Below, piece by piece: positions 3,262-43,866 of a DNA stretch of 43,866 bases. Every line of letters starts with the position of its first letter. Position 1 is the first letter of the stretch. The notes under the pieces are model-generated. The model saw nothing but the letters and a program-made list of their open reading frames with translations. It did not search any database and was not told the DNA's origin. The stretch comes from Vicinamibacterales bacterium (GTDB lineage Bacteria > Acidobacteriota > Vicinamibacteria > Vicinamibacterales > 2-12-FULL-66-21), in contig DASTBU010000136.1 of the NCBI GenBank assembly GCA_035711845.1, positions 1 through 43,866 on the forward strand, given 5' to 3'. Position numbers and translations under genes: made by a program.

Positions 3262-3294
3262 TGAAGGCTGAAGTAGGGAGCCTTCAGCCTTTCA
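3262..3294. terminator. Stem-loop TGAAGGCTGAAG-tagggag-CTTCAGCCTTT at the amidohydrolase-stop/hpt-start junction
   Basis: ~10-bp stem seen directly. It overlaps the stop codon of the upstream gene and lacks a U-tract. It has the same GAAGGCTGAAG unit as the array at 26853. Confidence 0.5.
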
Positions 3295-4680
3295 TCTGAC
3301 TGCCTCGCGTACCTTCGCTGCCCAGGCGCGCGCGTCGTCGAGCACCGCGCGCTCGTTCAACGTCTGCACGCGCCGATCGCGCATCACGAGCTGCCCATTC
3401 ACGACCATGCTCTGCACGTCGTCGCCACGCGTCACGTAGACGAGGTGCGACACCGGATCGTAGAGAGGGGTCTGGCGCGCGCCCGACATCGAGACCACGA
3501 TCAGATCCGCGCGCTTGCCCGCCTCGAGGGAGCCGATCTCCCTGTCGAGCCCAAGCGCGCGCGCGCCGTCGATCGTGGCCATTCGGAGGGCGGTGGACGC
3601 CGGCAGCGCACGCGGATCACCGCTCGTCAGCTTGTGCAGCAGCGCAGCCTGACGCATCGCCTCGAACATGTCCAGGTCGTTGTTGCTGGCGGCCCCGTCC
3701 GTGCCCAGGCCGACCGGTACCGATGCTTTTCGCAGATCCAGAACGGGTGCAGTCCCGCTCGCGAGCTTCATGTTGCTTTCGGGGTTGTGCGCAAGCCCCA
3801 CATGCCGTCGGGCAAGGATCCGGATATCGGCCGGGGTCAGCCAGACCCCGTGCGCGGCAATGGTGCGTGGGCCCCAGAAGCCAATCCGCTCGAGATACTG
3901 CACCGGCGTCGCCTTGTACCGCTCGCGGGCGATCTTCACCTCCTCGCGTGTTTCGGCCAGGTGGATGATGACGGGCGCGCGCTCCCGATCCGCAACCGCG
4001 CGAATGGCCTTCAGCGTCGCCGTGTCCAGCGTGTACATGGCGTGTGGGGCGATGGCCGGAACGATCAACTCGTCGTTCGCCCACGCGCGAAGGAACACGG
4101 ACGCACGCGCGATGCCCTCGCTCGGCGTCTTCGCGTCGGGGGACGGGAACTCGATGATGGTCTGGCCGAGCACGCCGCGGATGCCGGCGTCCTTCGTAAC
4201 CCTGGCGATCTCCTCCTCGAAGTAGTACATGTCCGCGTAAGTGGTCGTTCCGGACTGGATCATCTCCAGGACGGCCAGCCGCGTGCCCGCGCGGACGAAC
4301 TCGGGGCTGACGGTCCTGGCCTCGGCTGGAAAGATGTACTTCTGCAGCCAGTCCATCAGGGCCAGGTCGTCCGCCAGGCCACGGTAGAGCACCATCGGCG
4401 CATGTGTATGTGTGTTGATGAGGCCGGGAAGGACAACGGCGCCGGAGGCGTCGAGGGTATCGCGCCCGGTGAACTGCGACGCGATGGCGTCGGGGCTGCC
4501 GACGGCGACGATATCTCGGCCATCGACGGCAAGCGCCCCCGGGGAAAGGACCCGATTCGAGGGGTCGGCTGTGACGATCGACCCGCCAGTGACGACCAGC
4601 GACACCTCGCGAGGCGCTGACTGCCAGGCCGGCAGGACGAGTCCTGCGGCCGCGAGGGCCGCGCAGAGCCACCACAGCAT
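3292..4680 (-). CDS. Amidohydrolase-superfamily deaminase/chlorohydrolase (MTA/SAH-deaminase or guanine-deaminase-like), secreted
   Basis: Metal-binding LPGLINTHTHAPM motif and TRZ/ATZ-like core. Probable start is MLWWLCAALAAAGLVLPA (signal peptide) at 4680. A longer ORF reaches 4719. Confidence 0.75.
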   Translation of the reverse strand: MLWWLCAALAAAGLVLPAWQSAPREVSLVVTGGSIVTADPSNRVLSPGALAVDGRDIVAVGSPDAIASQFTGRDTLDASGAVVLPGLINTHTHAPMVLYRGLADDLALMDWLQKYIFPAEARTVSPEFVRAGTRLAVLEMIQSGTTTYADMYYFEEEIARVTKDAGIRGVLGQTIIEFPSPDAKTPSEGIARASVFLRAWANDELIVPAIAPHAMYTLDTATLKAIRAVADRERAPVIIHLAETREEVKIARERYKATPVQYLERIGFWGPRTIAAHGVWLTPADIRILARRHVGLAHNPESNMKLASGTAPVLDLRKASVPVGLGTDGAASNNDLDMFEAMRQAALLHKLTSGDPRALPASTALRMATIDGARALGLDREIGSLEAGKRADLIVVSMSGARQTPLYDPVSHLVYVTRGDDVQSMVVNGQLVMRDRRVQTLNERAVLDDARAWAAKVREAVR

Positions 4681-4741
4681 TTGAGGGGAAAATTCTATCA
4701 GCCTTCTCCCTTTTCCCATTTCCGTTTTGTATAGTGAAGCC

Positions 4742-5362
4742 GTGCCGCTGCACCTCGTCCAGCATCCGCTCGTTCACGACGCCCTCGTGGCCTTGCGGGA
4801 CGCCGCCACCCCGCCCGAGCTGTTCCGGCGGATGGCCGTCCGCATCAGCCTGCTGCTCGCCTCGGAGGCGACCAGGGAGATTCCCGTCGAGGACGTGAGC
4901 GTCCTCACCCCCCTTGGACCGGCCGACGGGAGAAAAGTGCGTGATGGCGTGGTGGTCGTCCCGGTCCTGCGGGCTGGGCTGGGAATGTTGGATGCCGTGC
5001 TCGAGCTGATTCCGACGGCGCGCGTGGGCCACATCGGATTGCAGCGGGACGAGATCACCGCCGTGGCGTCACAGTACTACTCGAAGCTCCCGGGCAACCT
5101 CACCGGCGCGTTCGTCCTGATGATCGACCCCATGCTGGCCACGGGCGGAAGCGCCGTCGCCGCGCTCGATCTGCTGAGCCGGGCCGGGGCGCGCCACGTG
5201 CGCATGATTTGTATCGTTGCCGCCCCCGAGGGGATCGCCCTCGTGGAGCGCCACCACCCCGACGTCCACATCTACACGCCGGTGGTCGATCAGAAGCTGA
5301 ACGAGCACAAGTTCATCGTCCCGGGACTCGGAGACTTTGGCGACAGGCTGTACGGGACCTGA
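4742..5362 (+). CDS. upp: Uracil phosphoribosyltransferase
   Basis: VQHPLVHDALVALRD...VPVLRAGLGM...MIDPMLATGGSA is the Upp signature. A GTG start at 4742 is assumed (ORF opens at 4727). Confidence 0.85.
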   Translation: MPLHLVQHPLVHDALVALRDAATPPELFRRMAVRISLLLASEATREIPVEDVSVLTPLGPADGRKVRDGVVVVPVLRAGLGMLDAVLELIPTARVGHIGLQRDEITAVASQYYSKLPGNLTGAFVLMIDPMLATGGSAVAALDLLSRAGARHVRMICIVAAPEGIALVERHHPDVHIYTPVVDQKLNEHKFIVPGLGDFGDRLYGT

Positions 5363-5368
5363 CGCTGA

Positions 5369-5536
5369 CGTAATTCGTAGTTCGTGCTCCGTGGTTCGTA
5401 GTCCGTGGTCCGTAGTCTGTGAGACGTCGCTGGCACGTCGCACGAGCACACGTCGCACGTCGCACGTGACAAGCAGCACATCGCACATCACACGTAGCAC
5501 GTCGCACGTGACAAGTGGCAAGTGGCATGTGGCACC
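5369..5536. repeat. 24 consecutive phase-locked heptads (CGTNGTN x7, then TCGCACG/TGACAAG-like x~16)
   Basis: Hand-phased from 5369. Every 7-mer boundary is preserved across 168 bp. Lies between the upp stop and the citryl-CoA-lyase-like start. Confidence 0.9.
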
Positions 5537-5553
5537 CGCAAACCGAGGCCCCC

Positions 5554-6414
5554 ATGAAAGACCAAATGGTCAGAGACAGGCTCACACCGCGCGAGGAACG
5601 ACGCAGCCAGAAGCGCCTGGCCGAAGACGGGTGGCGGACCGCCTTGACCTGTATCGAGCCCAACAAAATCCTCGTCCGCGGGTTTCCGCTCGACGAGATG
5701 ATGGGCCGCCTGACATTCGGCGAGGCGATTTACCTGCTGCTGGTCGGAGAGGTCCCCTCACCGGCGATTGGCAGCCTCATGGAGGCGATGCTGGTCTCGT
5801 TCATCGATCACGGCGCGACGCCGCCATCGACGATGGCGGCGAGGAATACGGCAACGACGGGCGCGCCGCTGCGGGCGTGCGTGGCCGCAGGCGTGCTCGG
5901 GTTCGGCCGCTATCACGGCGGCGACATCCAAACCTGCATGACCTTTCTGGACGCCGGGCTCGACCTGGTGCGCGGCGAGGCGAGCTACCACGACGCGGCA
6001 ACAGAGATAGTGAGGCGATGCGAGGAAGCCGACGAGATACCGCCCGGCTTCGGGCACCGCTTCCATACACGCGATCCGCGGGCGGCGCGACTCTTCCAGA
6101 TGGCGCTCGAGCTGGAAGTCGAAGGGCAGCACATCCAGATGATCCGCGCCGTGGAGGTCGTCCTGAGCGAACGGCCGGACAGCCAGGGCCGGGTGCTGCC
6201 GGTGAACATCGACGGGGCCATCGCCGCAGTCTGCGGGGATCTGGGGCTGGCGCCGTCGATCGCGGAGGCGCTCTTCATCATCTCGCGCGTCCCCGGGATC
6301 ACTGCCCATGCCGACGAGGAGCGGGCGCGCCATGGACCGATGCGCCAGATCGATCCCAAGGAGCATCGCTACGACGGACCGTCCCAACGCCGGCTGCCGG
6401 AACGGCGCAAGTGA
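5554..6414 (+). CDS. Citrate synthase-family small protein (citryl-CoA lyase-like)
   Basis: 286 aa matching the C-terminal catalytic half of citrate synthase (GFGHRFHTRDPRA, VLPVNIDGAIAAV). Confidence 0.65.
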   Translation: MKDQMVRDRLTPREERRSQKRLAEDGWRTALTCIEPNKILVRGFPLDEMMGRLTFGEAIYLLLVGEVPSPAIGSLMEAMLVSFIDHGATPPSTMAARNTATTGAPLRACVAAGVLGFGRYHGGDIQTCMTFLDAGLDLVRGEASYHDAATEIVRRCEEADEIPPGFGHRFHTRDPRAARLFQMALELEVEGQHIQMIRAVEVVLSERPDSQGRVLPVNIDGAIAAVCGDLGLAPSIAEALFIISRVPGITAHADEERARHGPMRQIDPKEHRYDGPSQRRLPERRK

Positions 6415-6475
6415 CCGCCTCGCTGCGTTGCGGTGGTTGGAGGGCTGAGATAAACTGAGGTTCCGCACACGAGGT

Positions 6476-6550
6476 TGGGCGCTTGGCTCAGCGGTAGAGC
6501 ATCGCCTTCACACGGCGGGGGTCAGTGGTTCGAATCCACTAGCGCCCACC
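6476..6550 (+). tRNA. tRNA-Val (anticodon CAC)
   Basis: Cloverleaf folded by hand: acceptor GGGCGCT/AGCGCCC, D-arm GCTC-AGCGGTA-GAGC, anticodon stem TCGCC/GGCGG with loop TTCACAC, T-arm AGTGG-TTCGAATC-CCACT, encoded CCA. Confidence 0.85.
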
Positions 6551-6717
6551 AACCACAAACCCTAGTTCACCAGGGGCTTACCAGCAGCAGGCGCGTCGCC
6601 GTTGCACGCAGGGGGATGCTGAGTCGCCGGCTCGGTTGCAACGGGTTTGCAACGGCGGGCGGGGTTCGTCCCGAACCGACGCATGCTCTCCTCCAAGCCG
6701 ACCAGCGTGGCGTTGAG

Positions 6718-9542: not shown

Positions 9543-10115
9543 TCAGGACGCTCCCTTCGCCTGCGCCGCGAGGAGGCTCAGGATCCGGGCGTACCGTTGG
9601 TCGGCCTCCGAGAACGCCTTCATGTACTCGTCCTCGCTGAGCTTCGCCTTCCGCCAATCCCCGTCGAAGGCCAGCTGGCTGCTACCGTTCTCGAACGTAT
9701 CGGCCGCCTGATCGCCATCAGGCCTGGCCACGAGCCCATCGCAGCTCTGATCGATGATGAAGACTTTCGACCCGGCGACCGAGGCCGAGTTGAGGTCGAT
9801 GTAGATATCCCGATAGTTCTTGCTGCTCATCTTCGCAACGAGCAGCGGCGGCGCCGCGTACTTCGCGGATACGACCAGTAGCTGCGCGCCAGGGAAATAG
9901 AGAGCGGCCACGAAGGTGGTGGGATCGGACGGATCGACAGCCGCGATGCTGTCCAGCTTCGCCGCGTCCAACGCGGCCGCCAGTTCCTTGGCAGCCGCGA
10001 CCGACTTGGCTTCCTGGGCCTGGACGGGCGCCAGCATCCCAAACATCAGCGCAACAGAAGCGGCGACGAGAGGTGTCAGCGCAGGGCGGACAGAAAACCG
10101 GAACTTGGGCTTCAT
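9543..10115 (-). CDS. Secreted hypothetical protein
   Basis: MKPKFRFSVRPALTPLVAASVALMFGMLAPVQA signal peptide followed by an Ala-rich soluble domain. Confidence 0.6.
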   Translation of the reverse strand: MKPKFRFSVRPALTPLVAASVALMFGMLAPVQAQEAKSVAAAKELAAALDAAKLDSIAAVDPSDPTTFVAALYFPGAQLLVVSAKYAAPPLLVAKMSSKNYRDIYIDLNSASVAGSKVFIIDQSCDGLVARPDGDQAADTFENGSSQLAFDGDWRKAKLSEDEYMKAFSEADQRYARILSLLAAQAKGAS

Positions 10116-10996: not shown

Positions 10997-11007
10997 CTCG
11001 CGCTCCG

Positions 11008-13702: not shown

Positions 13703-13704
13703 GA

Positions 13705-22416: not shown

Positions 22417-22420
22417 ATTT

Positions 22421-24199: not shown

Positions 24200-24209
24200 A
24201 CCGTGCGCG

Positions 24210-26875: not shown

Positions 26876-26929
26876 AGGCTGAAGGAACTTCAGCGTTCCA
26901 CCTTCAGCCTTCCACCTCAGCTTTGAAGG
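26853..26929. repeat. (GAAGGCT)x4.5 tandem array followed by its inverted complement (multi-hairpin) between convergent rarA and protease genes
   Basis: GAAGGCTGAAGGCTGAAGGCTGAAGGCTGAAGG, then AACTTCAGCGTTCCACCTTCAGCCTTCCACCTCAGC. Both gene stop codons lie inside it. Confidence 0.85.
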
Positions 26930-27792
26930 TGTGCGACCTTCCGGAACATCTCGGTGCGGATGGGCAGGATGAACGAGAACCTGTAATCGCCCTGCATACG
27001 CCCGATCGGGATGCCAACCAGTTCTCCGTCGCGGTTGAGCACGCCTCCGCCGGACACACCCGGGTGCCCGTCCGTGAGGCAGGTGACCAGCTTGTTGGCG
27101 GTCTTCTGCCCCACATAGCCGGTCGAGACGATGATGCCCTTCGAATAATCGTTGCCGAGCCGGAAGATCGGGTCCGCGAAGTCGAACCCGTACGCCAGGT
27201 TGGGTCTCAATGCCGGCAGATCCACCGGCTGCTTCACCTTGATGATGGCCCAGTCGCCCGGATCGACCTCGACTTCGGCATCCCCGGAATCCACCACGCG
27301 CGCGGGAATCAGCTTCCCGTCGTACATCAGCTTGACCGAGACGATGCGGCGCGGATCCGACAGACCTTCCTGGCCGAGCGCGACAACGCCGTGTTTCACG
27401 GTGATGAAGTATCCGTTGCCAAGGTAGCCCGCCGTGCCGTAGCTGCTCGAGCCGCGGTCGTCGTACGAATACAGCTCGACGAAGCTGGAGCGGCTGTCGC
27501 GGAGGAGATCCAGCGGGAGAAGCCCCATCTCGTCCTGCAGCTGCCGCTTGACGTCGGCCACGATCGCCGCGCGGTTGGCTTCGTCCATGGAGTCTGCGGC
27601 CGCCTTGCGGCCGTTGCCCGATGTCCCGGCCGCCTCGGCCAGTGGGCGTTTGAGTTGCGCAATCTCGGCGCGCAGGGCGGCAAGCTGCTCGTCGCTATCG
27701 TTCTGGCGAGCGCCCAGGTAGTTGCCCAGTCCAAAGAAGAGCAGGGCAAAGGCGGAAGCGATGATCGCTGGTAGCGTACGACGCGTGGACAT
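26917..27792 (-). CDS. Membrane-anchored trypsin-like (S1) serine protease
   Basis: N-terminal TM helix, coiled-coil, and a C-terminal chymotrypsin fold with DGHPGVSGGGV around the catalytic Ser. Confidence 0.75.
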   Translation of the reverse strand: MSTRRTLPAIIASAFALLFFGLGNYLGARQNDSDEQLAALRAEIAQLKRPLAEAAGTSGNGRKAAADSMDEANRAAIVADVKRQLQDEMGLLPLDLLRDSRSSFVELYSYDDRGSSSYGTAGYLGNGYFITVKHGVVALGQEGLSDPRRIVSVKLMYDGKLIPARVVDSGDAEVEVDPGDWAIIKVKQPVDLPALRPNLAYGFDFADPIFRLGNDYSKGIIVSTGYVGQKTANKLVTCLTDGHPGVSGGGVLNRDGELVGIPIGRMQGDYRFSFILPIRTEMFRKVAHLQS

Positions 27793-28024
27793 AGCAACTC
27801 CAAGTTCGGCAGCTAAACCACCCCGCACCAACGGGGCTTACAGCTTTGCGCACTTCCTGAACGGACGTGGCCTTTTCGCTTGGAAAAAAGTTCAGAGCCG
27901 AGTTGCTGGGATAAAAAACTGTAACGGGAATGCGGGTGACTGTCAAGAGTAAATCTTGCGCAGTCAGTCGGTTATGGCTCAGGTGCACACACCGGCACGC
28001 CGATGCATCGCTCCTCACCGGACG

Positions 28025-30301: not shown

Positions 30302-32113
30302 TCAGATACGCTGGAAGTTTTTTTCGATCTCGCGGCGGGACATCCGCAGCACCACGGGACGGCCGTGCGGGCAGACGCTCGAGTAGGCGGTGCGGCGCAA
30401 CTCCTGGAGGATGTAGCGCATCTTGTCGAGCGTCAACGGGTAGTTGGCTTTCACGGCCGCATGGCACGCCATGGTCGCCGCGATCCGGCGCAGCGGCTCC
30501 TCGACGCGCGTGCCCCGGTCGAGACCTTCGAGATCGTCGCCTAGCGCCCGAACCACGACTTCGCACTCGGCAGGGTCCAGCAGCGCCGGAACGGCCGAGA
30601 GTCGCAGGCTGCCGCCGCCGAACTCCTCGATCTCGATCCCGAACCGGTCCAGGGTGCCAGCATGGATCGTCAGGGCCTCGCGCTGGGCGGGCGACAACTC
30701 GATGAGAATTGGGCTCAGGAGCCGCTGTCCTTCGAGGCGTCCGGAGGTCAGCTTCTCCATGACCTGCTCGAACAGCACCCGCTCGTGCGCCACGTGCTGA
30801 TCGATCACCGCAATCCCCTCGTCGTCCACGGCAATGATGTACGTGTCGCGGAATTGCCCCAGCGGGATCATCGGCCGGATGTCCTCCGGCGTAATCCCGC
30901 CGGCCAGCGCGGCTCCGGCCGCCGACGCCACGTGGGCCAGCGGCGATACGTCGAGGTCGTGGGCGGAGGGGCCCGCCAGCGATCGCCAGACCGCGTCATG
31001 CTCCAGGGTCCAGCGGCTGCCAACGGTCGCGCCGGAGAGCACGCCGGGGATGCTGCGCGGGCTCGGCTCGTCGGGCCGCGCCGCAAATGGCGTGAACTGC
31101 AGCTCCGGCGCGCGCCCCTGACCGAGGGCCTCGGCCATCGCGCGTCTCAGGACCTCGTGCACGAGCGACTGCTCCAGGAAGCGGACTTCAGCCTTCGTCG
31201 GATGGACGTTGACGTCGACCCGATCCGGCGGGATCTCGACGAAGAGATGGACCTCCGGGCTGCGTTCCTTGATGGTTGCGACGCTGTAGGCTTCGGAGAT
31301 GGCGTGGGCGATCGTGCGATCCTTCACGATGCGGCGGTTCACGAACACGTTCTGCGCCCCGCGGACCGGCCCCTGGTCGCCGAGCGCGGCCACGTAGCCG
31401 TGGATCTTCAGCCCGCCGGCCTCCTTTTGAACCTCGACGAGCTCCGCCCGCTCGCCGAAGAGCTGAAAGAAGCGCTCGCGCAGCCCGGCAGCCGGCGGGC
31501 ACGCCAGCAGCGTGCGGCCCGGGCCCGTGGAGGCGCTGCCGCTCGTCAGCGTGAACCCCACCTCGGGGTAGCCGAGCGCCATCTGCGTCACGAGCCGGGA
31601 GATCTGCGTGGTCTCCGCGGTGTCCGACTTCAGAAACTTCCGCCGCGCCGGCAGATTGTAGAAGAGATCGGCGACCTCGAGGCACGTGCCTTCGGGAACG
31701 CCCACGTCACGCTCGGAGGCGATCGTGCCGCCGTTGACGCGGATTTCGGTGCCGGCCGCACTTCCGCGCGCGCGCGTGCGCAGCGTGAAGTGCGAGACCG
31801 ATGCGATGCTCGGCAACGCCTCGCCGCGGAAGCCGAGGGTGCGGATGGCTGCGAGATCCTCGGCGCTCGCAATCTTGCTCGTCGCGTGGCGCTCGACAGC
31901 CAGCCGTGCGTCTTCCGCCTCCATGCCGTCCCCGTCGTCCTCCACGCGGATCAGCTTCTTCCCGCCGAGCTCCACCGCGATCGCGATCCGCCGGGCGTGA
32001 GCGTCGAGCGCATTTTCGACCAGCTCCTTCACGACCGACGCCGGACGTTCGACGACCTCGCCGGCGGCGATCTGGTTGGCGAGGTGGAGTGGCAGGCGAT
32101 GGATACGGGACAT
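30302..32113 (-). CDS. mutL: DNA mismatch repair protein MutL
   Basis: GHKL ATPase N-terminus MSRIHRLPLHLANQIAAGEVVERPASVVKELVENALDA and the C-terminal dimerisation domain. Confidence 0.95.
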   Translation of the reverse strand: MSRIHRLPLHLANQIAAGEVVERPASVVKELVENALDAHARRIAIAVELGGKKLIRVEDDGDGMEAEDARLAVERHATSKIASAEDLAAIRTLGFRGEALPSIASVSHFTLRTRARGSAAGTEIRVNGGTIASERDVGVPEGTCLEVADLFYNLPARRKFLKSDTAETTQISRLVTQMALGYPEVGFTLTSGSASTGPGRTLLACPPAAGLRERFFQLFGERAELVEVQKEAGGLKIHGYVAALGDQGPVRGAQNVFVNRRIVKDRTIAHAISEAYSVATIKERSPEVHLFVEIPPDRVDVNVHPTKAEVRFLEQSLVHEVLRRAMAEALGQGRAPELQFTPFAARPDEPSPRSIPGVLSGATVGSRWTLEHDAVWRSLAGPSAHDLDVSPLAHVASAAGAALAGGITPEDIRPMIPLGQFRDTYIIAVDDEGIAVIDQHVAHERVLFEQVMEKLTSGRLEGQRLLSPILIELSPAQREALTIHAGTLDRFGIEIEEFGGGSLRLSAVPALLDPAECEVVVRALGDDLEGLDRGTRVEEPLRRIAATMACHAAVKANYPLTLDKMRYILQELRRTAYSSVCPHGRPVVLRMSRREIEKNFQRI

Positions 32114-32121
32114 GAAGGCGT

Positions 32122-32261
32122 CAGTTACCAGTTTCCAGTTTCCAGTTCCCAGTTTCCAGTTTCCAGTTTCCAGTTCTCAGTTTCCAGTTCCCAGTTTCCA
32201 GTTCGCCCCCTCAGCTGCCAGCTCCACTAACCGGCAACTGGGAACTGGAAACTGAGAACTG
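32122..32261. repeat. 12 tandem CAGTTTC/CAGTTCC heptads, 30-bp centre, then inverted (AACTGGG AACTGGA AACTGAG) units
   Basis: Hand-phased. Occupies the whole corA-stop to mutL-start gap and begins 8 bp from the mutL ATG. Confidence 0.9.
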
Positions 32262-32263
32262 TA

Positions 32264-33229
32264 TTACAACCATCCTCTCCGCCTGAAGAACACGAGCATG
32301 ACGGCCGAGATCGACAGCATCGCCGCGAACAGGGCCCAGAAGAACGTGGGCTCCCGAACCCCGAACAGGGGCAGCGTCACGTTCATTCCATACAGGCTCG
32401 TAATGAACGTGAGTGGCATGAACACGGTGGAAATGACCGTCAGCACCTTCATGACCGAGTTCAGCTGGTTCGACACGGCTGACAAGTGTGCGTCGAGCAG
32501 GCTGGTGACACGGTCCTGCAGGAAGGTGGCCTCCTCGCTCAACCGAACGAGATGGTCGTAGACGTCCCGGTAGCGGTACGACAGCGATTCGGAGATGAAC
32601 GGGAATTCGCGGCGGGCCAGTCGCCCGACCACGTCGCGCTGCGGCTGGACCACACGGCGCAGCGACGCGACGTCGCGCTTGAAATCGAGGATGCGGCGTG
32701 CGAGGTGCTGTTTGGTCCCCGCGAAGACGTCCTTCTCCAGCTCGTCGAGACGATCGTCGAGCTTGTCCACTTCGGGCCGATAGTTGTCCACCATCGCGTC
32801 GATGATCCGGTGCATCAACGCGGCCGGCCCCTCCCCCAGCAGCCGGCTGTCGCGCGGGCAGAGCTCGTTGATCTTTCCTATCGAACGCGAGATGCCGGGG
32901 TGCACCGTGACGAGATACCGGGTACCGAGAAAGAAGTCGACGTCCTGCGTGCGGAAGTAGTGCTGCCTGGCCCGGAAGTCGATGCCGTGCAGGACCACGT
33001 AGAGGTGGTCGCCGTACGACTCGACCTTGGGATGCTGAATCTCCGCAATGGCGTCCTCGATCGCCAGTTCGTGAAAATGAAACGTGTCCGACAGGATCCG
33101 CGCCTCCTCCGCGGTCGGCTGGCTGAGGTCCACCCACACCGATGTATTGTCCCCGGCGGCGAGCCAGGCGGGGTCCAGCTGCTCCACGCGCTGGGTGGAC
33201 CCATTCTGGTGGAGGTAGATGCTGATCAA
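32264..33229 (-). CDS. corA: CorA-family magnesium transporter
   Basis: Two C-terminal TM helices with the YGMN motif (LYGMNVTLP). 4-bp overlap with the ppdK stop. Confidence 0.85.
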   Translation of the reverse strand: MISIYLHQNGSTQRVEQLDPAWLAAGDNTSVWVDLSQPTAEEARILSDTFHFHELAIEDAIAEIQHPKVESYGDHLYVVLHGIDFRARQHYFRTQDVDFFLGTRYLVTVHPGISRSIGKINELCPRDSRLLGEGPAALMHRIIDAMVDNYRPEVDKLDDRLDELEKDVFAGTKQHLARRILDFKRDVASLRRVVQPQRDVVGRLARREFPFISESLSYRYRDVYDHLVRLSEEATFLQDRVTSLLDAHLSAVSNQLNSVMKVLTVISTVFMPLTFITSLYGMNVTLPLFGVREPTFFWALFAAMLSISAVMLVFFRRRGWL

Positions 33230-36036
33230 TCTCCGACCTTCACCTGCAGCGCCGCCTGTGCCGCGGCCAGCCGGGCGACGGGAATACGGTAGGGCGAGGC
33301 GCTGACGTAATCGAGCCCGACCTGCTCGAAGAAGTGAATCGACGAAGGATCACCACCATGCTCGCCGCAGATCCCGAGCTTCAGGTCGGGCCTGGCCGCC
33401 CGTCCCTTCTCCACGCCCATCGCCACGAGCGGGCCCACCCCGATGGTGTCAATGGTCGCAAAGGGATCCTTGTCGAGGATCTTCTTGTCCTGATAGGCCC
33501 CGAGGAACTTCCCGATGTCGTCCCGCGAGAAGCCGTAGGTCAGCTGCGTCAGGTCGTTGGTGCCGAATGAGAAGAACTCCGCCTCGGCGGCAATTTCGTC
33601 GGCCGTTATCGCTCCGCGCGGCACCTCGATCATCGTGCCGACCAGGTATTTGATCCTGATCCCCTGCTCCTTCATCACCTCGGAGGCGGCATTGTGCACG
33701 ACGATCTTCTGATCGCGCAGCTCCTTCACGTGACCCACGAGGGGGATCATGATCTCCGGCACCACCTTCGTGCCTTCCTTCGCAAGCTGACAGGCCGCCT
33801 CGATGATCGCCCGCGTCTGCATCTCGGTGATTTCGGGGTAGGTGATCCCGAGCCGCACACCGCGGTGGCCGAGCATCGGATTGAACTCGTGCAGCTGCTC
33901 CACGCGCCTGAGGAGCGCGCGCTTCTCCTCCAGCGCGCCAGCCTTGCCGCCTGCCGCTTCCATCCTCGCGATCTCGACCATGAGATCCTCTCGTTTGGGA
34001 AGGAACTCGTGCAGCGGCGGATCGATGGTCCGGATCGTCACCGGAGAGCCATGCATGCCCTTGAACACGCCGTAGAAATCTGCGCGCTGCAGCGGCAGCA
34101 GTTCGTTGAGCGCCTTCCGGCGTTCCGTTTCGTTGTCGGCCAGGATCATGCGCTGCACGATGGGGATGCGCCCCTCGCCGAAGAACATGTGTTCGGTGCG
34201 GCACAGCCCGATGCCCCGCGCGCCGAATGCATAGGCAGTCTCGGCCTGATCGGGCTGATCGGCGTTCGCCCGGATGCCGAGGCGGCGGAACTTGTCGGCC
34301 CAGGAGAGCAGGCGCTCGAACCGCTGGTACACGTCCGACTCGGCCGGCTTCATCTCACCGGCAACGACCTGAAGGATCTCGCTGGGCGTGGTCGGCACCT
34401 GCCCGAACTTGACCTCGCCGGTCAACCCGTCGAACGAGAGGAAGTCCCCCTCTTTCAGGGTCTTGCCTCCGACGGTGACCGCGCGCTCCGATTCCGAGAT
34501 CTCGAGCGCGCCGGCGCCGACGACGGAGGGTTTGCCCATCTGGCGGCCGACCACGGCGGCGTGCGACGTCATGCCGCCGGTCGCCGTCAGGATGCCCTGC
34601 GCCACGAACATGCCGTGGATGTCGTCGGGCACCGTTTCCTTCCGCACGAGAATGACCTTCATCCCCTGCCTCGACCACTCCACCGCGTGGTCGGCCGTGA
34701 AGACCACCTGTCCCGAAGCGGCGCCGGGGGACGCGGGCAGCCCCCGGGTCGCCGTGGGAAGCGCCTTCCACGCCTTGGGCTCGAAGACAGGGGCCAGCAA
34801 CTGCGAAACCGATTCCGGATCGACCTGCAGTACCGCCTCCTTCGGGGTGATGAGCTTCTCGGCGACGAGGTCGGTCGCGATCATGACCGCCGCGTAGCCG
34901 GTACGCTTTCCGTTGCGCGTCTGCAGCATGAAGAGGCGGTCGTCCTGGATCGTGAACTCGAAGTCCTGCACATCCTTGTAGTGCTTCTCCAGGCGGCTCG
35001 TGATCTGCCGCAACTCGTGGAACGCACGCGGCATGACATTCTTGAGCTGGCTGATCGGCTGCGGCGTCCGGATTCCGGCAACCACGTCCTCACCCTGCGC
35101 ATTGACGAGGAACTCGCCGTAGAACTCCTTGGCGCCGGTCGCAGGGTTCCGCGTGAAGCCCACGCCGGTTGCCGACCGATCCCCGGTGTTGCCGAACACC
35201 ATCGTCTGGACGTTGACGGCAGTCCCGATCGAGTCGGGAATGTCGTAGATGCGGCGGTACTCGATCGCCCTGGCATTGTTCCACGATCTGAACACGGCGT
35301 CGCGGGCGCCGCGCAGCTGAGCGAGCGGATCCTGCGGGAACACCTTGCGAATCTTCGATCGAACGACGCCCTTGTAACGCTCCACGACCTCGCGCAGCGC
35401 CGCCTCGTCGAGGTCCGTATCGAGGTGCGCCCCGTGCGACTCCTTGACGTCCTCGAATGCCCTCTCGAACACGTCCTTCGGAATCTCGAGGACCACGTTC
35501 CCGTACATCTGAATGAAGCGCCTGTAGCTGTCGTACGCGAACCGTCCGTTGCCCGTCCGCCGCTTCAAGCCCTCGACCGTGGCGTCGTTCAAGCCGAGGT
35601 TGAGGATCGTGTCCATCATGCCCGGCATGGAGAACTTCGCGCCCGAGCGCACCGACACGAGCAGCGGATTGTTCTCGTCGCCCAGCCGCGCGCCGGCAGC
35701 CTTCTCGAGCTTGCGGAGGTTCTCGTTCATCTGCGCGTCGACAACGAGCGGAACCTTCCGGCCCTCCTTGTAGTACAGCGTGCAGGCCTCGGTCGAGATC
35801 GTGAACCCCGGGGGCACCGGCAATCCGGCGTTGGTCATCTCGGCAAGGCCCGAACCCTTGCCCCCGAGCAGATCCTTCATGTTGCGGTTGCCGTCCGCCT
35901 TGCCGCTTCCGAAAAAGTACACGTACTTCCGCCGCCCGCCGGCCGCCTTCGTCACGCGAGCCGTCTTTTTCGCCGAGGCAACCGTGCGCTTCGGCGCCGC
36001 CTTCGACCCTGCCTTCCGTGCCGCCTTCTTTGCCAT
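33226..36036 (-). CDS. ppdK: Pyruvate, phosphate dikinase
   Basis: KYVYFFG...NLLGGKGSGLAEM N-terminus, the phospho-His GGMTSHAAVVGRQMGKPSVVGAG, and a C-terminal PEP-utilising TIM barrel. With the ATG at 36036 there is a 33-aa Ala/Lys-rich N-terminal tail. Confidence 0.9.
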   Translation of the reverse strand: MAKKAARKAGSKAAPKRTVASAKKTARVTKAAGGRRKYVYFFGSGKADGNRNMKDLLGGKGSGLAEMTNAGLPVPPGFTISTEACTLYYKEGRKVPLVVDAQMNENLRKLEKAAGARLGDENNPLLVSVRSGAKFSMPGMMDTILNLGLNDATVEGLKRRTGNGRFAYDSYRRFIQMYGNVVLEIPKDVFERAFEDVKESHGAHLDTDLDEAALREVVERYKGVVRSKIRKVFPQDPLAQLRGARDAVFRSWNNARAIEYRRIYDIPDSIGTAVNVQTMVFGNTGDRSATGVGFTRNPATGAKEFYGEFLVNAQGEDVVAGIRTPQPISQLKNVMPRAFHELRQITSRLEKHYKDVQDFEFTIQDDRLFMLQTRNGKRTGYAAVMIATDLVAEKLITPKEAVLQVDPESVSQLLAPVFEPKAWKALPTATRGLPASPGAASGQVVFTADHAVEWSRQGMKVILVRKETVPDDIHGMFVAQGILTATGGMTSHAAVVGRQMGKPSVVGAGALEISESERAVTVGGKTLKEGDFLSFDGLTGEVKFGQVPTTPSEILQVVAGEMKPAESDVYQRFERLLSWADKFRRLGIRANADQPDQAETAYAFGARGIGLCRTEHMFFGEGRIPIVQRMILADNETERRKALNELLPLQRADFYGVFKGMHGSPVTIRTIDPPLHEFLPKREDLMVEIARMEAAGGKAGALEEKRALLRRVEQLHEFNPMLGHRGVRLGITYPEITEMQTRAIIEAACQLAKEGTKVVPEIMIPLVGHVKELRDQKIVVHNAASEVMKEQGIRIKYLVGTMIEVPRGAITADEIAAEAEFFSFGTNDLTQLTYGFSRDDIGKFLGAYQDKKILDKDPFATIDTIGVGPLVAMGVEKGRAARPDLKLGICGEHGGDPSSIHFFEQVGLDYVSASPYRIPVARLAAAQAALQVKVGD

Positions 36037-36045
36037 TTCGTCCGC

Positions 36046-39103: not shown

Positions 39104-39111
39104 TCGCGAGA

Positions 39112-39864
39112 TTATCGGGCCTGGCGCATTTCACGGAGGACCCGGGCTGATTTGAGCTCCTTTTCGAGGTGCAGGCTGATCAACCGCCGGTGCGCGGTTT
39201 CGAGCTCCTGCGACGCGCCGGAGGTCAGCGGCATGCGGCCGAGCTGCTCGGGCCCCAGCCGCCCGGCGGCCAGCAGGAACCCCACGGCTTCGGGCGACAG
39301 CCTGCTGCCGCTGGTGCCAGGCGCACACGAGCCGCAGACGAACACGTGCTCGCGCGGTGGCATCACGACCCCGGCGCGGCGGTCGAACAACGTGCCGCAG
39401 GCACTGCACGCCAGACCGGGATAGACGCCCTGCAGCCGGAGCAGCCAGTACTCGAAGTAGCGCGCCAGGGGTTCGACCGCTCCCCCGGCAGCAACCGCGC
39501 CGAGCATCGAGGCGCCGAGCCTGAACAACCGTTCGTCGGCGTGCGCTTCGGGCGCCCACTCGTCGATCAACTCGGCGAAATATCCCACGTGTCCGAGCGC
39601 CTCTGCCGTGGCCGCCGACAGCGGCGACTGTACGGGCTCGACGTAGTTCAACCGCACGAGATCACGCTGCTCGCGCTCGTAATAGGCGACGCCCGCGCGC
39701 GTCATGGGCTCGAGCGCGCCGATGTACCTCGACCGCGGCCTCCGCGCCCCCTTGGCAACACCCCGCTTCTTCCCCCGATCCCGGGTCAGAAAGACGACTA
39801 TCCGATCGGCTTCACCCAGCTTGTATGTGCGGAGAATCAGCGCGTCGGCGGTGTAGACGGGCAT
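39112..39864 (-). CDS. recO: DNA repair protein RecO
   Basis: [34 protein letters not shown]-fold and a Cys4 zinc motif (CSACG...CGSC). The ATG at 39862-39864 abuts the TGAATGC array. Confidence 0.85.
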
Positions 39865-39871
39865 GGGAGTG

Positions 39872-40075
39872 CTGAGTTCTGAATGCTGAATGCTGAATGC
39901 TGAATGCTGAATGCCAAAAATGCCAACTGCTGCCGAATCGCTCGCCCTTTGCTGAACGTCATTACACCCCACATTCAGCACTCAGCATTCAACATTCAGC
40001 ATTCCCTTGAATCGCTTGCCTCCTGCTGAACGTCATCCCAATTCAGCATTCAGCATTCGACATTCAGCATTCATT
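39872..40075. repeat. (TGAATGC)x5 - spacer - inverted (ATTCAGC)x4 - duplicated spacer - inverted x4
   Basis: Direct reading. The 30-bp spacer GAATCGCT(C/T)GCC..TGCTGAACGTCAT occurs twice. Fills the whole mgtE-stop to recO-start gap. Confidence 0.9.
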
Positions 40076-41449
40076 TTACCCCGTCAGCTGCAAGTACCTG
40101 ATGAACAACGTCGCGAGGCCGAGGAACGAGAAAAACCCGAACACGTCGGTCAGCGTCGTGATGAACACGGACGAGGCCAGCGCGGGATCGACCTTCAGCG
40201 CTCTGAGCGACAGGGGGATCAACGTGCCTGCCGTCGCTGCCACGAACATGTTGATGATCATCGCCATCCCGAGGATCACGCCCAGCCACGGATCGCCCTG
40301 CGCGATCCAGACGACGAGTCCACCGATCAACCCGCAGGCGAGGCCGTTGGCCACGCCAACGGCAGCCTCCTTGAACAACGCCTTGCGCGAGTTGCCCCAC
40401 GTGAGCTCGCCGAGCGCAATCCCGCGGACGATGACGGTCAGTGTCTGCGTGGCGGCGTTCCCGCCCATGCCGGCGACGACCGGCATGAAGAACGCCACGG
40501 CCGTGTAGACGGTAATCGTGTTCTGAAACAGGGCGACGACGGAGGCGGCCGCGAAGGCGGTCACGAGGTTGACGAGCAGCCATGGGAGTCGCTTGCGGAA
40601 GGATTCGCGGGCGGGCGTGAACACCCGATCGTCGCTCGACACGCCCGCGAGTCGATAGACGTCCTCGGTCGCCTCGTCCTTGATGACGTCGATGACGTCG
40701 TCCACCGTGATCACGCCGACCAGCTTGTTCTCCTCGTCGACGACGGGGATCGCGAGGAGGTTGTAGGACGCGACCTGTCGCGCGACTTCCTCCTGATCCA
40801 TGTCCGCGCGGACGCTGATCAGATCCGTCGTCATGATCCGCTTCAGGGGCGTGGTCGGCGGGACCAGCAGCAGCCGGCGCAGCGAAACCACCCCTACGAG
40901 GTGTCGCCGCGCATCGATCACATAGAGATAGAACACCATCTCCACGTCGCGCGCACCCTGGACGGCAGTGATCGCTTCCCCGGCCGTGATGTCCTCCGAA
41001 AGTGCGAACACTTTCGGGTTCATGATGCGGCCGGCCGTCTGCTCCTTGTATTCCAGCAGCTCGCCGACGTCGCCGCCTGCCGGCCGTTTCTGGATCAGCT
41101 CCAGGACGGCAGCCGACAGCTCCTTTGGAAGGTAGTCGATGATCGCGGCGGCGTCGTCGGAGGGGAGCTCCTGCGTCAGCTTGACGATGTCTTCGCCGGA
41201 TCGATCGGCGAGGAGCGCCGCGCCCGCTTCGGGGCCGAGCTCGCTCAAGGCCTCCATCGCGAGCCGGCTGTTGCGTTCGACGAGCAGCGAAAACGCCGAA
41301 TGCCGGTCCTTTTCAGGCAGCTCGGAGAAGAGCTGCGCGAGGTCCGCGGGGTGCTGTTTTTGAAGAAGGTTCACCAGGTTGGACGTCGCCCCCATGCGCT
41401 GGAGGCGCTTCACGGAGTCGAGCACGACATCGAGCTTGCGCTGGGTCAT
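40076..41449 (-). CDS. mgtE: Magnesium transporter MgtE
   Basis: N-terminal domain, tandem CBS domains, and a C-terminal 5-TM MgtE channel. ATG at 41447-41449. Confidence 0.9.
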   Translation of the reverse strand: MTQRKLDVVLDSVKRLQRMGATSNLVNLLQKQHPADLAQLFSELPEKDRHSAFSLLVERNSRLAMEALSELGPEAGAALLADRSGEDIVKLTQELPSDDAAAIIDYLPKELSAAVLELIQKRPAGGDVGELLEYKEQTAGRIMNPKVFALSEDITAGEAITAVQGARDVEMVFYLYVIDARRHLVGVVSLRRLLLVPPTTPLKRIMTTDLISVRADMDQEEVARQVASYNLLAIPVVDEENKLVGVITVDDVIDVIKDEATEDVYRLAGVSSDDRVFTPARESFRKRLPWLLVNLVTAFAAASVVALFQNTITVYTAVAFFMPVVAGMGGNAATQTLTVIVRGIALGELTWGNSRKALFKEAAVGVANGLACGLIGGLVVWIAQGDPWLGVILGMAMIINMFVAATAGTLIPLSLRALKVDPALASSVFITTLTDVFGFFSFLGLATLFIRYLQLTG

Positions 41450-41675
41450 CGGCGGTCCGAGTCCGGTGAAAGATAACTGTTCAATGTAACACGAAGTTAC
41501 GGACTCAATCACGCGGGAAATCGCATCGATAGGCGCGAATCTGCGCGAATCTTCACGTATGGATATGCGTGGTCCGCAGCGTCCGCCGGCGGCAGTCCAC
41601 GGAAGACCCCGGGCGAGGCCTCGCCAATGCTTCTTGAATGCTGCTTATCGTCTGGCCCACTGGGCACGGCACGGC

Positions 41676-41717
41676 TTGACATACTACTACCGTGGACGTT
41701 ATAATACCGTCACGGTA
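41676..41717 (+). promoter_or_regulatory. Putative sigma70 promoter (TTGACA-18-TATAAT) with a 6-1-6 palindrome TACCGTcACGGTA immediately downstream
   Basis: TTGACA 41676-41681, TATAAT 41700-41705, palindrome 41705-41717. Lies 17-58 bp upstream of the padR ATG. A candidate autoregulatory PadR operator. Confidence 0.45.
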
Positions 41718-41733
41718 TTACTCAGGATGGAAT

Positions 41734-42066: not shown

Positions 42067-42572
42067 CCTGGTTGATCAAGCTCTATCCCCCGGCGTGGCG
42101 ACGCCGCTACGGCCCGGAGCTGGAGGAACTCATCGCCGCCCAGCCAGCGTCGTTCGCTACGGCGATCGATCTGGTCGCTGCCGCCATCGATGCCTGGCTC
42201 AACCCTCGGTTGCCGACGGCCGTCGCAGCCGCCGATGCGAAAGGAGCACGAACAATGGTCCCTCAGATACTGCAACTCAAATGCGCGGGGTATGGTCCGA
42301 ACGTCACGCGTGCCGACAGCTTCAAAGCCGCCGCAGTGACGCTGGGCGGAACTCTTGCGCTGGTGCTGGTGTGGATGTGGGCGACAGCGCAGTACGGAGG
42401 CAACCCGTACATCGAAACAATCGGTCTCTTTTCGTGGATTCCGCCGATGCTCTTCGGCCTCCGCTACACATCTTTGAAGGGGCGCCCGGGCCGGGTGCAG
42501 GCGGTGTTCATCGCGGCCAACACGGCGATTGTGATCGCCATCGCTCTGGGAGCCGCGTGGCTCAACAGCTGA
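42063..42572 (+). CDS. Small membrane protein with 'permease-prefix' N-terminal domain (LIKLYPPAWRRRYG), PadR-coupled
   Basis: GTG start overlapping the padR stop. The prefix motif is typical of PadR-associated FtsX-like permeases, but here it is followed by only ~3 TM helices (169 aa total). Confidence 0.55.
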   Translation: MTWLIKLYPPAWRRRYGPELEELIAAQPASFATAIDLVAAAIDAWLNPRLPTAVAAADAKGARTMVPQILQLKCAGYGPNVTRADSFKAAAVTLGGTLALVLVWMWATAQYGGNPYIETIGLFSWIPPMLFGLRYTSLKGRPGRVQAVFIAANTAIVIAIALGAAWLNS

Positions 42573-42632
42573 TGCGATCGCCAGGCGAGAAGAGCATGAA
42601 ATCGCGCGATCGAGCTGATCCATGCCTGAAGG

Positions 42633-43547
42633 TCATCCCCGTCTGGCCGTTCCTCGGGCAGTTTTCGGGACGTTGAGGTCGTCGAGGACGCGTTCGTTGT
42701 TCCGCCAGTCGGGGTTCACCTTGACGCGAAGATCGAGGAACACCCGCGTCTCGAAGAACTGCTCGAGGTCGCGCCGGGCCTCGGTGCCGATCGTCTTGAT
42801 CATCTCACCGCGTCGCCCGATGACAATGGCCTTCTGGGACTCCTGCTCGACGAAGATCGTGCAGTACAGCCGCAGGATACTGTCCCGCTCGCTCTCGTCG
42901 AACTGATCGACGATGACCGCGGTCGAGAACGGAAGCTCGGCCCGGGTATGCTGCAGCACCTTCTCGCGGACCATCTCGGCGACGATGGCGCGTTCCGGCT
43001 GATCGGTGAGGAAATCCGCCGGATAGATGGGATCGCCCTCGGGCAGCTGCGCGAGCAGCGCCTGCTCCAGTTGCTCGATGCCGTCGCCGGTCACCGCCGA
43101 CACGGGAACGATCGCGGCAAACGAGTGCCACCGCTGCGCCTGCTCGATGAGCGGGAGCAGCCTGGGCTTGGCGATCAGGTCGATCTTGTTGAGCACGAGG
43201 ATCACTGGCGCCTTGACACCGGCGAGCAGCCTCGACACGTACTCATCGCCGCGCCCCGGCTTGCTCGACGCGTCGAAAACCAGGACCACGACATCGACCT
43301 CCCGCAGGGTCTCGACCGCCGCGTCAACCATCCGCACGTTCAGCCGGTGCAGCGGACGGTGAATGCCGGGCGTATCGACGAACACAATCTGGCTGTCGCC
43401 AATGTTCTTGACGGCCAGAATCCGCGTCCGCGTGGTCTGCGGCTTGTCGGAGACGATGGCGACCTTGGTGCCAACGATGCGATTGAGAAGCGTGGACTTG
43501 CCCGCATTTGGCCGGCCCACCAGTGATGCGAATCCGCAACGCGACAT
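42633..43547 (-). CDS. era: GTPase Era
   Basis: G1 GRPNAGKST, G3 DTPG, G4 NKID, and a C-terminal KH domain. Confidence 0.9.
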   Translation of the reverse strand: MSRCGFASLVGRPNAGKSTLLNRIVGTKVAIVSDKPQTTRTRILAVKNIGDSQIVFVDTPGIHRPLHRLNVRMVDAAVETLREVDVVVLVFDASSKPGRGDEYVSRLLAGVKAPVILVLNKIDLIAKPRLLPLIEQAQRWHSFAAIVPVSAVTGDGIEQLEQALLAQLPEGDPIYPADFLTDQPERAIVAEMVREKVLQHTRAELPFSTAVIVDQFDESERDSILRLYCTIFVEQESQKAIVIGRRGEMIKTIGTEARRDLEQFFETRVFLDLRVKVNPDWRNNERVLDDLNVPKTARGTARRG

Positions 43548-43552
43548 CGATC

Positions 43553-43866
43553 GGTCCCTCGTCCCTCGATCCCATGGTCCCTGGTCCCTCGGTCCCTCGG
43601 TCCTGGGTCCCTGGTCCGGGTCCCGGGGTCCCTGGTCCGGGTCCGGGGTCCCTGGTCCGGGTCCCGGGTCCCTGGTCCGGTCGCGGGGTCCCTGGTCCGG
43701 TCGCGGGGTCCCTGGTCCCTCGGTCCTTCAATCTCGGGTCCCTCACGAACGGGGTGCGACTCGAGACCGGGGACTCAGGAGCAGCGACCCCGGACCGAGG
43801 GACCCCGGACCGAGGGACCCCGGACCGAGGGACCCCGGACCGAGGGACCCCAGACCGAGGGACCCC
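43553..43866. repeat. Second copy of the GGTCCCT / CCGGACCGAGGGACC composite inverted repeat family (runs off the window end)
   Basis: Left arm GGTCCCTGGTCCGGGTCCCGG repeats; centre containing GGGGACTCAGGAGCAGCGACC; right arm (CCGGACCGAGGGACC)x5. Same unit and same GGGACTCAGGA centre motif as the 22.4-kb locus. Confidence 0.9.

Follow-up and report, generated by a model that had tools for sequence, protein, structure and literature searches.

The window considered here, a stretch of 43,866 nucleotides (nt) from a Vicinamibacterales bacterium (Acidobacteriota; assembly GCA_035711845.1, contig DASTBU010000136.1), carries tandem arrays of 7-nt units at seven of its gene boundaries, and at most of these sites an array faces a second one in inverted orientation. 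The question that it raises is how such arrays arise, and whether the long hairpins that they can form are a function or a by-product. The order is one of the most abundant groups of soil bacteria, and what is known of it comes almost entirely from metagenomes. The GC content of the window is 65-66%. With modest confidence, the arrays are taken here to be heptanucleotide (7-8 nt) microsatellites that are made and remodelled locally by replication and repair, and to be neither copies of one mobile element nor a dedicated RNA device.

Heptad arrays at seven gene boundaries

An earlier note on this DNA had described seven sites with one architecture, an array, a short unique centre and the reverse-complement array. 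Period-7 arrays are present at all seven, and six of the sites fold into hairpins; the seventh, at 5369-5536, consists of two direct arrays. Tandem Repeats Finder (TRF) reported arrays of period 7 (or 7 + 8 = 15, 14, 21 or 28) at 5374-5534, 22421-22796, 26853-26921, 32122-32261, 39867-40073 and 43551-43866. A lag scan of the window gave runs at lags 7, 8, 14 and 15 only, except for one lag-9 and one lag-13 run, and at the stricter threshold no run was found in 100 shuffles. Heptad arrays were confined to these seven places in the window. The lag-7 autocorrelation was 0.48-0.69 in the seven array spacers, compared with about 0.25 in 13 other noncoding segments. By TRF and the lag scans the units stand head to tail in three or more copies, and some arrays mix 7- and 8-nt units, which gives the period of 15. 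The arrays and arms, with the evidence for each, are as follows.

3262-3294, minus strand: minimal 12-bp hairpin with about two GAAGGCT units per arm (sequence; lag-7 autocorrelation 0.58)
5374-5421, plus strand: direct CGTRGTY array of about 6-7 units, without an inverted partner (TRF, sequence)
5433-5534, plus strand: direct GCACGTN array of about 14 units, higher-order period 21/42 (TRF)
22421-22561, minus strand: GGGACC(N) array of 7/8-nt units, the 3' arm in transcript sense, abutting the ATG of the metB-like gene at 22416 (TRF periods 7/15/29/36)
22650-22796, minus strand: array reading GGUCCC(N) in the transcript, the 5' arm (TRF, sequence, Pfam)
26853-26885, plus strand: GAAGGCT x4.7 (TRF, 100% matches)
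26888-26921, plus strand: inverted arm (CTTCAGC CTTCCAC), which holds the stop codon of the convergent peptidase gene at 26917-26919 (TRF, sequence)
32122-32204, minus strand: long 3' arm of about 12 units, GAAACTG in transcript sense, higher-order period 28, ending 8 nt before the mutL ATG (TRF, fold)
32236-32261, minus strand: short 5' arm of 26 nt, starting 2 nt past the corA stop codon at 32264-32266 (26/26 inverted match)
39867-39914, minus strand: 3' arm of about 6 units, GCATTCA in transcript sense, ending 2 nt before the recO ATG at 39864 (TRF, sequence, fold)
39972-40073, minus strand: two direct TGAATGC arrays, 39972-40004 and 40041-40073 (TRF, sequence, fold)
43551-43726, minus strand: GGGACC(N) 3' arm of 7/8-nt units, higher-order period 20, abutting the era ATG at 43547 (TRF, sequence, fold)
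43764-43866, minus strand: array reading GGUCCC(N) in the transcript, the 5' arm, period 15, continuing past the end of the window (TRF, sequence, fold)

Inverted pairs are found at 5-6 of the seven sites, and their arms are often unequal (12 versus 4 units at mutL). As a member of the family the site at 3262-3294 is marginal: it does form a hairpin, but with a 12-bp stem and only about two units per arm. The site at 39872-40075, which had been read as one array, a unique centre and one inverted array, actually holds three arrays, two direct modules and then one inverted. In the transcript each TGAATGC array is followed by a repeat of about 30 nt (ATGACGTTCAGCA..GCGATTC), so that array and flank are duplicated as a module. 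Nor does every locus have a unit of its own, as had been supposed. GAAGGCT is common to the 3262 and 26853 sites and GGGACC(N) to the 22421 and 43553 sites, two units at two loci each within 44 kb; the units are otherwise distinct, and five unit families are found at the seven sites.

Every array in the window is intergenic or overlaps the last codons of a gene only. The arrays begin 0-12 nt past the upstream stop codon, or have the stop codon within them, and end 2-19 nt before the downstream start. The CGTRGTY array begins 12 nt past the upp stop codon (5360-5362), and the TGAATGC region at 39972-40073 begins 2 nt past that of mgtE (40076-40078). Five of the sites had been said to adjoin the start codon of the gene to their right. 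The proximity holds, with gaps to the ATG of 4 nt for the metB-like gene (22416), 3-5 nt for era (43547), 8 nt for mutL (32113), 2 nt for recO (39864) and 19 nt between the GCACGTN array and the citrate-synthase-like gene (5554), but the first four of these are minus-strand genes, situated to the left of the arrays. The further claim that arrays straddle stop codons was borne out by the amidohydrolase (3292-3294), patatin-like (22772-22774), MgsA (26873-26875) and peptidase (26917-26919) genes, whose stops lie within arrays or arms. The last 8 codons of the patatin-like gene and its TAG stop are array-encoded, and the GAAGGCT array encodes the C-terminus of MgsA/RarA (..RRLKAEG, the last 7 codons) with its TGA stop. 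In the hairpin at 3262-3294 the first 3 nt are the amidohydrolase stop codon, and its end is 8 nt from the hpt-like start (3253). The longest open reading frames (ORFs) of the metB-like gene (21256-22617) and recO (39112-39981) overrun the true starts by 200 nt and 117 nt, through the arrays.

Independent assemblies and variation between strains

By exact-protein look-up, five of the seven sites could be traced to independent JGI and Logan contigs, through era, mgtE-recO, corA, the metB-like gene and MgsA; for upp there was no record. Loci other than the window are given below by their L numbers. The 3' arm of the era site (43551-43726) is found in L001-L004, with small indels and differences in unit variants, 53 nt of the arm at 22421-22561 are matched in 8 independent contigs, and the long mutL arm (32122-32204) is identical in 5 independent contigs, all of which break within it. 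Since the same arrays occur in independent metagenome assemblies, they are not artefacts, as the earlier note had allowed that they might be. Their existence and overall structure are real; the exact copy number of the longest arrays is uncertain.

The same contigs bear on the suggestion that the arrays are noncoding and prone to slippage, and they agree with it. In four independent metagenome contigs (L102-L105) the GAAGGCT array at 26853-26885 is exactly one unit shorter than in the window, with an additional 1-nt difference in the opposite arm, and the MgsA protein is unaffected. In L001-L005 indels make up most of the differences within arrays. The rate of difference, 1-8%, is close to that of other intergenic DNA and several-fold higher than that of coding DNA. 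Copy number therefore does vary between strains, as the comparison proposed in the earlier note was meant to reveal, although on few strain comparisons, which are limited by short-read contigs that stop within long arrays. Nearly all short-read contigs for era, corA and the metB-like gene (L001-L005, L086-L090 and L094-L101) end within a heptad array. The arrays are thus a systematic cause of fragmented assemblies in this lineage and explain why its short-read contigs break at gene boundaries.

Distribution among relatives

The relatives found through MutL (62-81% identity) are all Acidobacteriota and mostly labelled Vicinamibacterales, and some are long-read metagenome-assembled genomes (MAGs) with Mb-scale contigs. 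They make up a sample of 1.36 Mb in 80 loci; counts that include the window refer to about 1.40 Mb and 81 loci. The wider scan for period-7 arrays that had been called for was run on this sample, and its outcome was as predicted. TRF found 104 arrays of period 7, compared with 3 of period 6, 25 of period 8 and 15 of period 10; repeats of period 9, 12, 15 and 18 lie mostly within coding sequence. Of the 104 period-7 arrays, 85 are noncoding or at gene edges, in DNA that is about 85% coding. There are about 100 noncoding heptad sites, or one per 14 kb, in 54 of the 81 loci, and the window is about three times richer in arrays than the average relative. A control, 150 kb of a Cupriavidus megaplasmid with 62% GC, gave no array of period 7, 8 or 14 with identical settings.

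Of 124 noncoding heptad-family arrays, 43 have an inverted partner no more than 400 nt away; the corresponding figures are 13 of 237 for other repeats and 1 of 32 for heptad arrays in coding DNA. The units are diverse: 93 arrays have 71 canonical units. Identical canonical units at non-orthologous sites nevertheless make up 16 pairs where 2.8 would be expected (200 simulations gave at most 8), and two of these pairs are in the window. Sites occupy 59 of 640 co-directional, 21 of 139 convergent and 14 of 118 divergent junctions, proportions close to background. For the relatives the genes were called only crudely, as longest ORFs with a filter on third-position GC (GC3), so that the divergent and convergent classes are noisy.

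Two sites in relatives differ in make-up from those of the window. In the interval that separates a ferritin-like gene from mgtE, L033 has at 440-990 inverted octad arrays (GAACCTTT, 95 and 128 nt) around a unique segment of about 330 nt, which has no convincing ORF and a MITE-like appearance (MITE, miniature inverted-repeat transposable element). At 1985-2180 of L065, GTCGGCG / CGCCGAC heptad arms flank a classical terminator-like stem-loop that is followed by a T-run, possibly an example of arrays nucleating around a pre-existing hairpin.

Turnover at the corA-mutL junction

The junction between corA and mutL can be followed through the relatives. In about half of them the two genes overlap or are no more than 22 nt apart, and in the others the spacer is 30-298 nt; the spacer lengths of L013 and L020 were imprecise in the scan, and their sequences were used instead. 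Periodicity is strongest at lag 7 or 8 in most (14 of 27) of the larger expansions. The units at this junction are as follows.

CAGTTTC: the window
CAGTCGN: L007, L008 and L029
TGAATGT: L009
GATTGTC: L011
GATTGCG: L013
GCACGTN: L019-L021
AATGTTG: L041
GGTGCAA: L043
GATTTGGT: L057
GTCGGCG: L065
CGGGTTCT: L076

On the MutL tree the units are common within small clades and differ between clades. Presence of an array can differ between close relatives: L009 has one and L014 does not, and the same is true of L013 and L015. L008 has only the start-proximal arm of the palindrome in L007. Palindromic expansions are found at this junction in at least ten relatives. The ancestral junction is one in which the two genes overlap or have at most 22 nt between them. 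Units may also recur at other places: GCACGTN, at this junction in L019-L021, is the unit of the citrate-synthase-like spacer in the window, and TGAATGC is found at the mgtE-recO junction of L007 and L008 as in the window. The corA-mutL spacers of L030 and L034 (about 9800-10000) hold dispersed TCCTTCGA(T) copies at irregular spacing, with no tandem array.

Arrays within the MutL linker

Heptad arrays also occur inside mutL, in 11 relatives (L006, L023, L028, L031, L034, L037, L038, L044, L045, L048 and L057; period-7 and period-21 calls). They lie at about nt 1100-1240 from the start, in the disordered linker of the protein. Each relative has its own unit, there is a higher-order period of 21, and the arrays are read as 7-residue repeats (DPGFGTR x3 in L045). 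The 19 intragenic period-7 arrays are concentrated in this linker. The mutL gene of the window has no heptad array in the linker, and other period-21 coding repeats in the sample showed no lag-7 signal, being ordinary two-copy repeats. The occurrence of heptad arrays in a coding linker indicates that the process acts where constraint is weak, beyond contexts in which transcript structure could matter.

Folding of the transcribed spacers

The window sites were folded as RNA of the transcribed strand, and z-scores were computed against dinucleotide shuffles, with these results.

3251-3297: -17.1 kcal/mol, z -4.05
22417-22800: -227 kcal/mol, z -9.1
26845-26935: -44.9 kcal/mol, z -4.96
32114-32266: z -7.0
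39865-40078: -98.7 kcal/mol, z -7.68
43548-43866: -221 kcal/mol, z -5.97

At none of these six sites did a shuffle match the stability of the native fold. The very long mRNA hairpins proposed in the earlier note are therefore to be expected at six of the seven sites, but not in the spacer at 5363-5556, in which CGTRGTY is followed by GCACGTN in direct order; it has no palindrome and, at z +2.36, is less stable than its shuffles. At the recO site the structure begins 3 nt past the mgtE stop codon and ends 2 nt before the ATG, and at the hpt site the stop codon is within the stem, with the ATG 8 nt beyond.

Most hairpins can pair in several registers. In the minimum free energy structure of the mutL site the distal 57 nt or so of the long arm (about 8 units) are unpaired, and the short arm is a perfect complement of one register of the long arm, the unique best, with variant units mirrored. 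Such a clearly unique register, with mirrored unit variants, was found only here (32122-32261) and at 19800-19935 of L057, and two sites provide no general evidence that pairing is maintained. Sense and antisense folds were equally good: among 20 paired sites each strand was the more stable in half, and GU pairs numbered 105 versus 80. Neither measure shows a strand bias, and RNA-level selection on the mRNA strand is thus not indicated.

Origin of the arrays

In the explanation preferred here, this lineage of Acidobacteriota would have a strong bias towards expansion of 7-nt units by slipped-strand mispairing. Arrays would accumulate where constraint is low, in intergenic spacers up to the stop and start codons and, in 21-nt steps, in the disordered linker of MutL. 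Inverted pairs could arise by two routes. In one, fold-back or strand-switch synthesis would copy an array beside a stem-loop to the other side; in the other, a seed hairpin would expand in both of its arms. The arms would then slip independently, which would account for arms that are often unequal and for the several pairing registers. On polycistronic mRNAs the pairs would form long hairpins that span the spacer, and any effects of these on mRNA processing, stability or translation starts are probably side-effects and not a selected function.

Several observations weigh against this explanation. The preference for seven nucleotides is itself unexplained, and exact two-copy tandem duplications outside the arrays showed no specific enrichment at 7 nt, in what is a noisy control. 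The excess of inverted partners (about a third of noncoding heptad arrays compared with 5% of other repeats) needs a specific process, for which the copying and seed-hairpin routes are conjectural candidates. The recurrence of identical units at non-orthologous sites hints at dispersal or at favoured units. The recurrence of arrays at the same junctions across the order could reflect selection. Finally, the mirrored variants in unique register at two sites fit recent copying, and they also fit maintenance of pairing.

Alternative explanations

The strongest of the alternatives, which is nonetheless unlikely, is that the paired arrays are functional RNA hairpins under selection for structure only, comparable to repetitive extragenic palindromic (REP) sequences and bacterial interspersed mosaic elements (BIMEs). 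They might shield upstream mRNA against 3' exonucleases, serve as RNase III sites or set the translation of the gene downstream, with slippage as a quick means of tuning stem length. The very stable folds at six sites are as such a function would have them, as are the palindromes of different units at corA-mutL in so many relatives, the mirrored variants at two sites and the stems that span stop to start, as at the recO site. Set against these are the equal folds and GU pairing of the two strands, and the many close relatives with no spacer between corA and mutL, for which the element is dispensable. Some two thirds of arrays are unpartnered, arrays of this kind also stand within a coding linker, and divergence of arrays between strains is about that of other intergenic DNA. 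Rfam 15 covariance models, applied to the whole window at the gathering threshold, matched a tRNA-Val only and nothing at the arrays. There is no genome-wide conserved palindrome of the REP/BIME type, given the number of units among the arrays and centres that are non-homologous. With respect to phase variation, the arrays lie upstream of start codons and outside the promoters recognised by a scan, in which no sigma-70 consensus was found at the window arrays, and the unit polymorphism changes no protein.

A more specific proposal, and a doubtful one, is that palindromic arrays are tolerated, or perhaps favoured, in coupled operon junctions. The base of the stem would bring the stop and start codons to within a few nt of each other, so that coupling by termination and reinitiation would survive an insertion of 150-380 nt, and slippage could tune downstream housekeeping genes, including the mutation-rate genes mutL and recO. 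The proposal is based on the geometry at recO and hpt and on the close or overlapping genes at the ancestral corA-mutL junction. On a broader view of the same kind, a 7-nt slippage process specific to the lineage might be where most new intergenic DNA, and most new disordered linker sequence, comes from in this abundant soil order.

A terminator role had been suggested in the earlier note. That the arrays are canonical Rho-independent terminators, or bidirectional ones between convergent genes, is a very unlikely reading and is not supported by the data. The hairpin at 26853-26921 does lie between convergent genes, and the heptad arms in L065 surround a classical stem-loop and T-run. A scan for a stem followed by a U-run, however, found none at any window array, where the tails are not U-rich. 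Most sites are between co-directional genes, directly before start codons, and convergent junctions are occupied only slightly more often (15%) than co-directional (9%) or divergent (12%) ones.

It is less probable still that the sites are miniature mobile elements, of the MITE or REP/RAYT type (RAYT, REP-associated tyrosine transposase), with tandem arrays as their terminal inverted repeats. Identical units recur at non-orthologous sites above chance, twice in the window, and the octad arrays of L033 enclose a unique segment. However, when the two GGGACC sites were aligned locally over their central segments, only chance matches of 6-9 nt were seen, and this lack of relation argues against MITE-like copies, as does the variety of canonical units. 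The statement in the earlier note that no single mobile element had been copied around is upheld. Sites that share a unit have no conserved core in common, some arrays are single or lie within ORFs, and at a fixed junction the units track host phylogeny. No RAYT (TnpA-REP) transposase is encoded in the window, where Pfam covered the flanking genes only.

Equally improbable are repeats that regulate through G-quadruplexes or i-motifs, like the GGGAATC arrays of Xanthomonas, or arrays that bind a regulator. The two largest sites (22421-22796 and 43551-43866) do consist of GGGACC(N), with G3 tracts every 7-8 nt and a unit known from Geobacter. G3 tracts of the Xanthomonas type occur at the GGGACC(N) sites only, since CAGTTTC, TGAATGC, GAAGGCT, GCACGTN and most units of the relatives have no G-tracts, and there is no common motif for a regulator to read. 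Assembly artefacts from collapsed or chimeric reads are a negligible prospect: short-read contigs do regularly end within arrays, but the same sequences come from independent samples and different assemblers at five of the seven sites, and long-read MAGs with Mb-scale contigs have arrays of the same kind.

Gene map and other features of the window

Genes were mapped from a GC3-based set of ORFs together with Pfam, and the majority are on the minus strand. Those assigned from the ORF map and Pfam are listed here.

2735-3253, minus strand: hpt-like gene
3292-4719, minus strand: amidohydrolase
4727-5362, plus strand: upp
5554-6414, plus strand: citrate-synthase-like gene
21256-22416, minus strand: Cys/Met-PLP enzyme (metB-like)
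22772-24199, minus strand: patatin-like gene
SpoU, plus strand
25550-26875, plus strand: MgsA/RarA
26917-27831, minus strand: trypsin-like peptidase
28025-29638, minus strand: flotillin
30302-32113, minus strand: mutL
32264-33229, minus strand: corA
33226-36036, minus strand: PPDK
glyS and glyQ, minus strand
39112-39864, minus strand: recO
40076-41512, minus strand: mgtE
42633-43547, minus strand: era

The tRNA-Val (CAC) is at 6477-6551; the Rfam match to it covers 6477-6548. A GreA gene (154 aa, minus strand) lies at about 24120-24590, in a 389-nt gap of the GC3 map between the patatin-like gene and SpoU. The divergent region between mgtE and padR (41513-41705) has a lag-10 periodicity of 0.43, with period-10 and period-11 repeats. 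A perfect TTGACA-18-TATAAT is found at 41676-41705; it overlaps the start of the longest padR ORF, which suggests a shorter, perhaps leaderless, padR. In metagenome gene calls padR is 110 aa long.

Implications

For annotation it is of consequence that ORF callers extend the starts and ends of genes through the arrays. For strain typing the arrays are natural markers of the variable-number tandem repeat type. A bias towards 7-nt expansion is common to Xanthomonas, Geobacter and cyanobacteria; it is strong and unexplained, and here it writes 7-residue repeats into a protein linker. The arrays of this lineage are a tractable system for asking why the number is seven and how inverted pairs of microsatellites originate. 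Should the hairpins prove active on mRNA, they would represent a sequence-free counterpart of REP elements, and interest in them would rise if operon expression or translational coupling were found to depend on them.

Comparison with known systems

The earlier note knew of no such density of arrays in high-GC bacteria, which was too strong a statement. Genomes of Xanthomonas (about 65% GC) have about 185 intergenic arrays of the heptamer GGGAATC, and in 70-75 cases two convergent arrays are close neighbours (Rehm et al. 2015, PMC4692102). The arrays have 2-26 copies, are 89-93% intergenic and lie mostly between co-directional genes; their length and sequence vary between close species, and the type, single or pair, is usually kept (PMC4692102). 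The likeness to the window is considerable, with high GC, tandem 7-nt units, intergenic location and frequent convergent pairs able to form stem-loops. Xanthomonas, however, belongs to a different phylum and has one genome-wide G-rich unit (GGGANTN) with G-quadruplex potential, whereas the window has many unrelated units. In Xanthomonas the distance from an array to the nearer (5') neighbouring ORF is about 28 nt and that to the next ORF downstream about 160 nt, in contrast to the window arrays, which fill the spacer to 2-19 nt from the start.

Geobacter metallireducens has four GGGACCG units in each of 49 elements, which lie both in genes and between them and in one case adjoin transsulfuration genes, and five tandem MTYCTGA heptanucleotide units at each of 15 sites; they have been interpreted as regulatory RNAs or binding sites (PMC2700814). 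GGGACCG is also the unit of the two largest sites of the window, one of them beside the Cys/Met-PLP gene. With 4-5 units the Geobacter elements are short, and they fall into families of sequences that match by BLAST, whereas the window arrays are long, locus-specific and variable. The presence of GGGACCG beside transsulfuration genes there and a Cys/Met-PLP gene here is probably a coincidence, but the unit may be favoured for its G3 tracts.

The short tandemly repeated repetitive (STRR) sequences of cyanobacteria, the subject of work by Mazel and colleagues in 1990, reportedly consist of tandem heptanucleotides, with several distinct units per genome, mainly in noncoding DNA. In these respects they resemble the arrays described here. 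Three such heptanucleotides are cited for Calothrix (PMC4692102). Each STRR unit is dispersed at many loci, and in the window two units recur at two loci each. There are, however, few inverted pairs in Nostoc, and the hosts are low-GC cyanobacteria. REP sequences and BIMEs are alike in being intercistronic or 3' hairpin-forming repeats in operons. A REP is a single imperfect palindrome of 20-40 nt, conserved genome-wide, RAYT-linked and without heptad substructure, whereas the arrays here have no conserved sequence.

Over-representation of heptameric simple sequence repeats (SSRs) is reported for many bacteria (Mrazek, Guo and Shah 2007, cited in PMC4692102). As represented in the papers that cite that work, its long SSRs are described without palindromic pairing, turnover at a fixed junction or Acidobacteria, and a literature search found nothing linking Acidobacteria or Vicinamibacter to heptamer repeats. 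Heptanucleotide long SSRs and their inverted pairs are thus known already, and the window arrays are best filed as belonging to this phenomenon and not as a new kind of element. What is distinctive here is the many unrelated units per genome, the operon spacers filled up to the start codons, the birth, loss and turnover of arrays at a fixed junction, the invasion of a protein linker, and the phylum of the host.

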